DNA of 64,000 nucleotides from positions 28,659 through 92,658 of the IMG/VR virus record IMGVR_UViG_3300049043_000133. One strand, 5' to 3'. This DNA comes from a virus. The notes beneath the pieces are model-generated. The model was not told the DNA's origin and searched no databases. It saw only the letters and a list, made by a program, of their open reading frames with translations. Position 1 is the stretch's first letter, and each line of letters begins with the position of its first letter. Positions 18,533 through 21,398 of this stretch are shown piece after piece. The position numbers and the translations under genes were made by a program.

Positions 18533-21398
18533 ATGACTGCTACAATTGCTTCACGCCGTTCTGGCGCTTCATCCACTTGGGAATCATTCTGCCAGTGGGT
18601 GACTTCAACGAACAACCGCCTTTATGTTGGTTGGTTCGGAACTCTGATGATTCCTACACTGCTCGCTGCAACTGTATGTTTCATCGTTGCCTTCATTGCC
18701 GCACCTACCGGTCGACATTGACGGTATTCGTGAACCCGTTGCTGGTTCACTCATGTACGGAAACAACATCATCTCTGGTGCTGTAGTTCCTTCATCTAAC
18801 GCTATCGGACTTCACTTCTATCCCATCTGGGAAGCAAACTCACTTGATGAATGGCTGTACAACGGTGGTCCTTTCCAACTGGTTGTGTTCCACTTCCTCA
18901 TCGGCATCTATGCTTATATGGGTCGTGAGTGGGAACTTGTCCTATCGCCTGGGTATGCGTCCTTGGATTATGTGTTGCATATTCCGCACCCGTTGCTGCT
19001 GCATCTGCTGTATTCCTGGTCTATCCTTTCGGTCAAGGTTCTTTCTCTGATGCGATGCCTTTGGGTATCTCTGGTACTTTCAACTACATAAACTAAACCA
19101 ATGTGTAGTATAAATCGGGTGAACTGCTGGAAACCTAAATCGTATTGACTAACTTTTAACTTTATGCTATTATAAATATTAATAGATATATAAAGTTAAA
19201 TGTCTAAAAGACTTACTATTGATGATTTAAAAAGTATTGCTGAAAATAGAAACCACAAAGTAGTTTGTATGGACGGTTATACTGATATTAAAAGTAAAGT
19301 CTGGTTCTTTTGTAATACTTGTAGTGAATATTTCTATACAAGTGTTGCTTCTTATAAAAACGCAAAGAAAACTGGTTGTCCTCATTGTAGGAAAATCACT
19401 ATCTCCAAAACTCAAAAAGGAAAGGATGTTAGTGATGAAACCAGAAAACTTCTATCTCTAAAAGCACAAGGTCGTAAAGGTTCTCTTAAAGGTAAGTTTG
19501 GTAAAAACCATCCTGCTTATAAAGGAACACCAAATAGAGATTTTAATAACCCCTCAACAGATTATTATATTTGGAGAGAGGCAGTAAAACAGAGGTTTAA
19601 TAGAACTTGTGTTGTTACTGGTAAAAAATCTAACCTTGTTACTCATCATTTAGATGGTTGGAATGCATATCCTCAAAGAAGATATGATATTACAAACGGC
19701 GTTCTTATTCACAAAGAAGTTCATAAACTATTCCACGACCTTTATGGATATGGAAACAACACAGAAGAACAGTTTAATCTCTTTATTAAAGAACAATACG
19801 ACAAGGCAATCAGCATCCAAGCCGCAGACGCTTCTGTGGAAGGTTCAGAGACTACTGGGTGAACCAAGCGTGGTTCGTAATACCAGATTAGCGCCCGACA
19901 CTAATAGAAAATCTGTTGGTGATGATATAGTCCAATCCTTATGGAAACATAAGTTCTCCGTTCTGCTTAATAGGTTGGTTTTCCAAGCAGAGCACAACAT
20001 CCTGATGCACCCCTTTCATATGTTAGGCGTCGCAGGTGTGTTCGGTGGAAGTCTATTTTCCGCTATGCATAGGGAACTGTGCCCTTGCTGAGTAATCAGT
20101 AAGTGAAAATCGGGTGAATTGCTGGAACCCTAAGTCACTAAAATGTTACTTGACTTGTATAAATAACTCTGGTAACATAAACAGTATGACTAACCAGTAC
20201 TTATCTTTTATTGGGGAATGTAAAAACAAAACATATCCTCCCAACACATATCTTGAAGAACACCACATTGTTCCAAAACACGATGGTGGTTCTGATAATC
20301 AAGAAAATCTTATTTCATTATCTTTTGAAGATCACATACTCGCACATAAAATAAGGTACGATGTATTCGGTCAAGTTTATGACTTAGCAGCATATAACTT
20401 GATGAGTGGTTTTGATGATGAAGGTTGGAAACTTCTTAGAGTTGAAGGTGCTTATAAAACACACGAAGCACTAAGATTATCTAAGAAAAACTTTTGGAGT
20501 TCTGATTATCAAAAAGAAATGTCTGCTCGTTCTGTAAAGTCTGAGTATGCTATGAAAATGAGAAGTGTTGGTGGTAAAGTAGGAGGTAAAAATAGGAACA
20601 AAAATGTTGCTATTACTTCTACTGATAAGTATATTTTCTCTTATAATAAAGTTGAAACAGTTTGTATAATCAACTGTGAAACTGGTGGAGAAGTTTTAGA
20701 AGAACTACAAAAAATAGTTCCTAATCAAAACTTTAAGAGGGTAACACCTCTACTAAAAGGTCAAAGAGAAAATGCTTATGGTTGGTCTTGTATAAAGTTT
20801 AGTGATATGGTAATCAGCAGCCAAGTCCTAGATACATCTAGGAAAGGTTCAGAGACTACCTGAGGGGTATAGTCCCCTTAATAACAGGTTTAAGTGCCCG
20901 ACAACCTAATACAAATAGGTTGATGATATAGTCCACTCCTTATGAAAATAAGGAATAGAGGTGGGTTCCCTCGTAACCTCCTCACTCGTTCGTGAGACTA
21001 CTGAAAATGAATCACAAAACTACGGATATAAGTTTGGACAAGAAGAAGAAACCTACAATATTGTTGCCGCACACGGGTACTTTGGTCGTCTCATCTTCCA
21101 ATATGCTTCGTTTAACAATTCTCGTAGCCTGCATTTCTTCCTTGCTGCTTGGCCTGTCGTGGGTATTTGGTTTACCGCTCTTGGTGTTTCTACTATGGCG
21201 TTCAATCTCAACGGGTTCAACTTCAACCAGTCGCTGATTGATAGTCAGAACCGTGTTATCCCTACCTGGGCAGACATTCTTAACCGTGCTGGTCTGGGTA
21301 TGGAAGTGATGCACGAAAGAAACGCACATAATTTTCCTTTGGACCTTGCATCAGTTGAAGCAACCCCAGTTGCCTTGACTGCACCAACCATCGGGTGA
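18533..21398 (+). CDS. psbA: photosystem II D1; exons 18533-19089, 19974-20070, 20964-21398; exon 1 has 1-nt indels
   Basis: [30 protein letters not shown], splicing restores [13 protein letters not shown] and SAMH-GSLVTSS; ends HNFPLDLA...APTIG. Confidence 0.97.
19090..19973 (+). mobile_element. group I intron 1 of psbA (inside the Met183 codon, AT|G)
   Basis: exon ends in U, intron ends in G; P1 ACTACAT/GTGTAGT; P10 AAACCAA/TTGGTTT; core P CTGCTGGAAA, Q GCAATCAGCA, R TCAGAGACTA, S GATATAGTCC. Confidence 0.93.
19200..19862 (+). CDS. intron-encoded HNH homing endonuclease
   Basis: CxxC pairs, NUMOD3-like [11 protein letters not shown]-terminal HHL...[14 protein letters not shown]. Confidence 0.85.
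20071..20963 (+). mobile_element. group I intron 2 of psbA (after His215)
   Basis: exon ends GCAT; P1 GCAT/GTGC; P10 AGGGAAC/GTTCCCT; core TTGCTGGAA, GTAATCAGCAG, TCAGAGACTA, GATATAGTCC; terminal G. Confidence 0.93.
20186..20863 (+). CDS. intron-encoded HNH homing endonuclease
   Basis: [31 protein letters not shown]; ATG at 20186 follows a late promoter. Confidence 0.85.
   Translation: MTNQYLSFIGECKNKTYPPNTYLEEHHIVPKHDGGSDNQENLISLSFEDHILAHKIRYDVFGQVYDLAAYNLMSGFDDEGWKLLRVEGAYKTHEALRLSKKNFWSSDYQKEMSARSVKSEYAMKMRSVGGKVGGKNRNKNVAITSTDKYIFSYNKVETVCIINCETGGEVLEELQKIVPNQNFKRVTPLLKGQRENAYGWSCIKFSDMVISSQVLDTSRKGSETT

Follow-up and report, generated by a model that had tools for sequence, protein, structure and literature searches.

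Group IA introns that encode their own endonucleases and spread by recombination during co-infection are known from the td, nrdB and sunY genes of phage T4 and from the DNA polymerase gene of phage SPO1 (I-HmuI). Here, two introns of this general kind were analyzed in the psbA gene of a 64,000-nt stretch of viral DNA, referred to below as the window, which comprises positions 28,659 to 92,658 of the IMG/VR record IMGVR_UViG_3300049043_000133 and is part of a 92.6-kb viral contig with a CheckV completeness of 45%. Based on the genes that the window encodes (a gp5-type baseplate hub with lysozyme, a gp32-type single-stranded DNA-binding protein, and tail-fibre genes) and on the IMG/VR record, the virus is assigned to the T4-like cyanomyoviruses. 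We consider it probable (about 0.8) that the window holds two mobile group IA introns of a homing pool shared between phages and plastids, inserted in the psbA gene of such a virus. Like the T4 and SPO1 introns, those of the window are group IA, interrupt a conserved gene of a large phage and encode endonucleases; unlike them, they reside in a photosynthetic gene, lie as two endonuclease introns 97 nt apart, and have relatives in a eukaryotic organelle.

Mobile HNH-encoding group I introns in phages, and psbA introns in a few cyanophages, are already known. Introns carrying endonuclease genes have been recorded in psbA of cultured cyanophages (PMC8557907), and the part of Puxty et al. that cites Millard et al. 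describes psbA introns as widespread in marine metagenomes (PMC5931967). The psbA intron of S-PM2 is ORF-less and located at nt 1002, near the 3' end, in agreement with a preliminary description of the window. For this phage, collaborative homing with the free-standing endonuclease F-CphI is attributed to Zeng et al. 2009 in the portion of PMC6083498 that cites that work. S-PM2 and the window have in common a group IA intron in a cyanophage psbA gene, and the S-PM2 endonuclease targets the insertion region of intron-less alleles, as is proposed for the enzymes of the window. However, the S-PM2 endonuclease is encoded by a separate downstream gene and belongs to the Endo VII (DHHRN) family, whereas those of the window are HNH enzymes, each encoded inside its own intron. 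The psbA gene of S-CBWM1 is interrupted twice, at 649 and ~1011, and its first intron encodes a homing endonuclease; that of S-SRM01 is interrupted three times, at 276, 750 and 1002, and the endonuclease gene is in the intron at 276. These sites differ from the 548 and 645 of the window. As in the window, the group I introns of these two phages encode HNH-type endonucleases, which belong to the 645 family with 31-39% identity, and their ribozyme cores are related to those of the window (71-80% at the nucleotide level). The annotated bounds of intron 1 in S-CBWM1 (MG450654; L041:2941-3724), at 651 with the exon ending in ...GGGTCA, violate the U|...G rule; a shift of 2 nt (GGGU|CA...UUG|CA) gives site 649 and leaves the protein unchanged. 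None of the phage collection records has an intron at psbA 548 or 645, and no close homologue of the first window endonuclease (ORF 1) was found among cultured phages, the best matches being proteins of Bacillus and Staphylococcus phages with 24-34% identity.

Introns at the same two positions are found in green algae. The chloroplast psbA gene of Oedogonium cardiacum contains group I introns at nt 179, 276, 384, 408, 525, 548, 570, 645, 754, and 898 (PMC2442088, Table 4), which bears out the statement in the preliminary description that 548 and 645 are intron sites of green-algal chloroplasts. Both Oc.psbA.6, at 548, and Oc.psbA.8, at 645, are IA1 introns, and L5 of the former contains an HNH ORF of 202 codons (PMC2442088). 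Further chlorophyte psbA introns are located at 333, 414, and 790 in Floydiella and at 179 and 750 in Ulva. The introns of the window share with Oc.psbA.6 and Oc.psbA.8 the exact sites and the group IA assignment, and both 548 introns have their ORF in L5; unlike in Oedogonium, the host gene in the window is a bacteriophage psbA of the cyanobacterial type. The novelty lies in the connection with plastids: the endonucleases of the window are the closest relatives of chloroplast endonucleases at the same sites, and this pairing is repeated at other sites. A literature search, outside which four relevant subscription papers lay, yielded no report of cyanophage and chlorophyte psbA sharing intron sites and endonuclease lineages.

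Exon boundaries were set by aligning the joined exons to the intron-less psbA genes of S-BM4 and Syn19 and by tblastn with D1 (Table 1). Met183 is the codon interrupted by the first junction (AU|G), and the second falls directly after His215; these positions correspond to nt 548 and 645 of standard psbA, and exon 2 codes for E189, H190, H198, and H215. The preliminary description had placed two HNH-encoding group I introns around a 97-nt exon at these sites and had assigned these four residues to the middle exon, and its coordinates, anatomy and numbering were all reproduced. Its statement that splicing leaves the reading frame intact holds across both junctions, but exon 1, which lies outside the interval it had considered, contains three +1 insertions that are considered below.

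Both introns are assigned to group I, subgroup IA (no finer than IA1/IA2), from their predicted fold. The Rfam Intron_gpI model (RF00028) scored intron 2 at 50.7 bits (E 4e-11), above the gathering score of 50, and intron 1 at 46.5 bits (E 7e-10), slightly below it; the ORF of ~670 nt in L5 disrupts the alignment of both introns to this model. The helices were located by comparison with ORF-less relatives and their pairs were then checked base by base. P1 consists of 7 bp in intron 1 (ACTACAU/GUGUAGU) and 4 bp in intron 2 (GCAU/GUGC), in each case with a U.G pair, and P10, which pairs with the downstream exon, consists of 5 and 6 bp, respectively. The U|...G boundaries and the P1 and P10 pairings that had been proposed for the two introns were thus confirmed at the level of single bases. 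P5 is also present in both introns, the core including the P3/P7 pseudoknot pairs throughout, and the P7.1/P7.2 hairpin between P7 and P3' that is typical of subgroup IA was found in both. Intron 1 is without the P2 hairpin present in intron 2. The same structure, with the P3/P7 pseudoknot, was evaluated on aligned phage psbA introns that naturally have no ORF (15 introns, six sites); 85% of the cells were paired, as compared with 34-44% in slid controls, and 30 pairs showed compensatory changes on both sides.

In the protein encoded by ORF 1, a zinc ribbon is located at the N-terminus and an HH..N..H motif is visible; the score of this protein against the Pfam HNH_2 model (14.9 bits) is under the cut-off of 21, and named HNH homologues exist. 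ORF 2, in the second intron, matched the Pfam HNH model with 25.3 bits (cut-off 21.4) and the PHROG homing endonuclease family with an E-value of 2e-17, and encodes an N-terminal HNH domain followed by a C-terminal part that is assumed to bind DNA. PDB sequence searches with both endonucleases gave no informative relative. In both introns, the 3' end of the ORF overlaps P5', P4', and P6 and reaches into P7, with the stop codon in P7.1; the phage ORFs share this extension into P7, whereas algal ORFs end differently. The T4 late-promoter-like motif TATAAATA is located 21-22 nt upstream of each endonuclease start (19171-19178 and 20158-20165), with TTGACT ~20 nt further upstream of each copy, and a motif of this kind also precedes intron ORFs in T4. 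With 8 matches against 7 expected, TATAAATA is not enriched across the window, and its position ahead of both endonuclease genes may be taken as a hint of late promoters only.

Having defined the two endonucleases, we compared them with their counterparts in plastids. ORF 1 matched a chloroplast HNH protein of Oedocladium carolinianum with 49% identity over 210 aa (E 9e-68), and the same search also returned a chloroplast protein of Staurocarteria crucifera. ORF 2 matched a chloroplast HNH endonuclease of Blidingia minima with 38% identity over 216 aa (E 5e-45). Green-plastid-type psbA contigs, which were obtained by scanning metagenomes with algal-type proteins, are distinguished by a D1 protein with a short C-terminus, the sequence ESANxGYRFGQ, and Ile184, which is Leu in the cyanobacterial type. 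Homologues of ORF 1 (39-50% identity) occur in these contigs at exactly 548 and homologues of ORF 2 (39-41%) at exactly 645, so that the 548 family, to which the Oedocladium protein belongs as well, is common to the window and plastids. At both sites, the phage and plastid endonucleases are full-length homologues (E 1e-41 to 1e-68). Of the 13 phage sites, about 6 are identical to intron positions published for chlorophytes, as compared with a chance estimate well below one. An Rfam scan of the plastid-type loci detected group I introns only and no rRNA. Five of these contigs (L045, L047, L048, L054, and L080) show introns at 179, 276, 384, 408/414, 548, 570, 645, and ~756, with exons down to 22 nt, and contain multiple HNH paralogues, of which some are frameshifted. 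When the same protein patterns were run against 185,579 prokaryote species genomes, no cyanobacterial homologue was found; the sole good match was a 3.6-kb contig binned in a Flavobacterium metagenome-assembled genome (MAG), which we suspect to be a mis-binned plastid fragment.

In the tree of the ORF 2 (645-type) family, the endonucleases cluster by insertion site: the 645 proteins of phages and plastids share one starred group (support 97/98), a plastid-408 protein falls with the phage proteins of that site (96/88), and a plastid-276 protein falls with the phage-276 proteins (91/84), among them that of S-SRM01. For ORF 1, the tree unites the phage 548/556 proteins and the plastid 548 proteins in a single family, from which a plastid-570 group of paralogues (99/93) is set apart. 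The suggestion in the preliminary description that shared sites would point to intron exchange or common ancestry between cyanophages and plastids is supported for the endonucleases. Features of the RNA are also shared at 645, where phage and plastid introns agree in the guide sequence and in a P2 hairpin that has a GUAA loop and compensatory changes in its stem; at 548, by comparison, plastid introns have a P2 hairpin that is absent from the phage intron.

Table 1. Features of the psbA region of the window, with positions in the window and the basis of each assignment.
Feature	Positions	Strand	Basis
Sigma-70-like promoter match, TTGACA-17-TATGAT	18349..18377	+	Consensus scan, 11/12 positions, TG extension; pattern match only
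PhotoRC-II RNA motif, psbA leader	18397..18495	+	Rfam RF01717, 72 bits (gathering score 39), E 1.2e-11
psbA exon 1, Met1 to bases 1-2 of Met183, ending ..TACAT	18533..19089	+	Three-frame translation, alignment, tblastn
Group IA intron 1, standard psbA nt 548	19090..19973 (884 nt)	+	Rfam Intron_gpI; helices checked base-wise
Helices of intron 1	P1 19083-19089/19103-19109; P10 19098-19102/19974-19978; P3 19115-19120/19893-19898; P4 19124-19129/19811-19816; P6 19822-19839; P7 19850-19854/19928-19932; P7.1/7.2 19855-19886; P8 19900-19920; P9 19938-19953; terminal G 19973		Comparison with ORF-less relatives
HNH homing endonuclease gene 1 (ORF 1), 220 aa, in L5	19200..19862	+	PHROG phrog_1271 HNH endonuclease, E 5e-12
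psbA exon 2, third base of Met183 (G) to His215	19974..20070 (97 nt)	+	Translation, alignment
Group IA intron 2, standard psbA nt 645	20071..20963 (893 nt)	+	Rfam Intron_gpI; helices checked base-wise
Helices of intron 2	P1 20067-20070/20079-20082; P10 20072-20077/20965-20970; P2 20084-20103; P3 20110-20115/20896-20901; P4 20119-20124/20815-20820; P6 20826-20843; P7 20854-20858/20929-20933; P7.1/7.2 20859-20888; P8 20903-20921; P9 20938-20953; terminal G 20963		Comparison with ORF-less relatives
HNH homing endonuclease gene 2 (ORF 2), 225 aa, in L5	20186..20863	+	Pfam PF01844 HNH; PHROG phrog_655 homing endonuclease
psbA exon 3, Gly216 to stop, long cyanobacterial-type C-terminus	20964..21398	+	Translation, alignment
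GC-containing terminator-like hairpin right after psbA stop	21420..21444		Terminator scan, called on minus strand; pattern match only

Taken as a mechanism, a shared homing pool would operate as follows. Each intron, as a complete ribozyme, would remove itself from the psbA RNA and ligate its flanking exons with the frame preserved, and splicing would thereby restore the region of D1 with E189, H190, H198, and H215. During mixed infection, each HNH enzyme would cut intron-less psbA near its own insertion site, and recombinational repair would then copy the intron together with adjacent exon sequence into the cut allele. Both introns belong to a large population of psbA introns that occupies a dozen or more sites in uncultured cyanophages. 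Site-specific endonuclease lineages (548, 645, 276, and 408) are common to phage and green-algal chloroplast psbA, so that both compartments would draw on one pool of homing elements, and the ribozyme cores would be reshuffled or homogenized within each type of host.

Several points weigh against this reading. In a tree of the 3' core, built by a quick search from the P7-to-P7' segment of 90 columns only, 16 of the 19 plastid cores form one group (99) irrespective of site, with the phage cores as the remainder, and the cores of the window fall among the other phage cores rather than pairing by site with their plastid counterparts. In the 548-type endonuclease tree, the backbone, and with it the deep order of branching, is not resolved. 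Identity between phage and plastid endonucleases is just 38-50%, from which it follows that the transfers would be old or the intermediates unsampled. The plastid origin of the metagenomic contigs is assigned from D1 signatures and named homologues, not from whole plastomes. As recorded, the psbA gene of the window cannot be translated owing to the insertions in exon 1, and the gene as written would be non-functional. Finally, splicing, cleavage, homing, and transfer between compartments are processes that we infer from sequence.

The comparison with chlorophyte psbA introns that had been proposed in the preliminary description accordingly gave a divided answer: the sites and the HNH proteins match, and the cores group mainly by host. 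Endonuclease genes follow the site, and ribozyme cores are mosaic and mostly follow the host, a split that fits either a transfer of endonuclease genes from one intron to another or gene conversion between introns of the same gene. The phage 548 introns comprise two core types, and the plastid 645 core of L080 groups (98) with phage cores that share the 548-type P7.1/P7.2 module of the window, including the 548 core of the window itself.

A wider interpretation, to which we give even odds, would treat cyanophage and green-algal psbA as a single homing arena in which at least four lineages (276, 408, 548, and 645) have crossed between virus and organelle without a detectable cyanobacterial chromosomal intermediate. 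Cyanophages or an unseen carrier would then be a source of chlorophyte psbA introns, or the reverse, and endonuclease genes and cores would move and recombine independently. The connection between phage and plastid introns makes testable the long-standing puzzle of where the sporadically intron-rich chlorophyte psbA gene gets its introns. There is also a consequence for surveys of viral photosynthesis genes, since many environmental cyanophage psbA genes contain up to ~7 introns, which methods based on PCR or ORFs miss or mis-call.

Relatives of the two introns were identified by scanning IMG/VR and JGI metagenomes with both endonuclease proteins. Site numbers of phage contigs were set from the psbA gene of S-BM4, with a correction of +3 as its D1 is one codon longer than the standard, and the junctions were checked. 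This search resulted in more than 60 psbA contigs of the cyanobacterial type with one or the other endonuclease intron at exactly 548 or 645. Identity of the endonucleases among these phage-type contigs is mostly 88-95%, with more distant forms at 54-83%. At the same two sites, relatives have ORF-less introns of 229-232 nt (a 232-nt intron at 645 in L012) and introns of 271-299 nt with partly deleted endonuclease genes, and in cultured phages both sites are empty in intron-less alleles. All stages of the homing cycle are visible at 548 and 645: empty site, gene-bearing intron, intron with a partly deleted gene, and ORF-less intron. Further introns in the psbA genes of uncultured phages are located at 179, 230, 276, 317, 408, 556, 750, 890, 992, 1002, and 1008. 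[quoted passage not shown] In a divergent lineage of phage-type psbA (L016:193-1072, L076, L077, and L079), a 548-type endonuclease with 62% identity is encoded by an intron at 556. This intron (GUGU|...G|UU) includes a P2 hairpin, and although its endonuclease is of the same family, its position is shifted downstream by 8 nt relative to 548.

Both sites are covered by 54 phage-type contigs, of which the window is the only one with two intact endonuclease genes; most often, a single gene is present and the other site is empty or occupied by an ORF-less intron. A single endonuclease could mobilize both introns across 97 nt, rendering a second gene dispensable, and the window could be a recent recombinant with both genes. 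Alternatively, each intron would be real and the double-gene arrangement an assembly chimera, in which two co-occurring strains, one with an endonuclease intron at 548 and the other with one at 645, were joined across the conserved 97-nt exon, and a single genome would not contain both. The uniqueness of the arrangement among the 54 contigs would be expected of such a chimera, as would the poor quality of the contig, an incomplete metagenomic fragment in which psbA and no fewer than three structural genes are frameshifted. However, introns at both sites, one of them ORF-less or with a partly deleted gene, are present in L012, L020, L030, L032, and L060-L069; double occupancy is thus natural and an occasional double-gene recombinant is to be expected. 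Exon 2 also shows no visible discontinuity of sequence, and we consider a chimera unlikely.

The insertions in exon 1 raise a different alternative, namely that psbA of the window is a true, very recent pseudogene, in which the insertions are real and the introns persist as selfish DNA. Relative to all relatives, exon 1 has one extra base at each of three positions (18707 a, 18939 g, and 18970 a) within a span of 264 nt, and tblastn showed three frame switches in the order 2, 0, 1, 2, with a stop codon immediately after the first shift. The clustering of three insertions in exon 1 of a gene that has no such damage in exons 2 and 3 or in its two endonuclease ORFs is consistent with a pseudogene, as is the fact that none of the three falls in a homopolymer run. 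Against this, the shifted frames between the insertions still encode D1 at 87-97% identity, with no sign of decay, and exon 1 is unbroken in all relatives. Virion genes that are expected to be essential are broken in a similar manner: the phrog_350 tail protein extends over three frames (41655-42782), the phrog_35997 gene is split between 38451 and 41465, and the phrog_32965 virion protein gene (45386-48141) is split at ~47164-47209, the pieces in each case matching consecutive parts of one PHROG profile. Because the breaks in other genes of the contig are similarly clustered and the frames are undecayed, the insertions are very probably errors of sequencing or assembly, and a genuine pseudogene appears improbable. 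Programmed +1 frameshifting and scars of endonuclease cleavage were also considered as causes of the insertions and were rejected, as presumably essential virion genes show like breaks. When IMG/VR was scanned for exact matches to the part of exon 1 that surrounds the first insertion, neither the pattern with the extra base nor that without it was found.

The weakest alternative is convergence, by which unrelated introns would have settled independently, without exchange or common descent, on the same conserved U-ending positions of psbA; although group I introns favor highly conserved sequence, and the host-wise grouping of the 3' cores and the P2 difference at 548 are in its favor, the site-wise groups in the tree of the 645-type endonucleases already largely refute it, the full-length homology, the number of coinciding sites and the shared P2 and guide sequence at 645 speak against it as well, and we regard it as highly improbable.

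In the remainder of the window, no synteny with 44800-48300 was found when three related viral records were searched at the DNA level, and megablast of other parts against cultured phages gave almost no matches. The ORF-poor stretch at 52100-54400 was considered as a possible tRNA cluster, which was rejected as ARAGORN found only one tRNA there. This is a tRNA-Thr(UGU) gene at 53258-53333.

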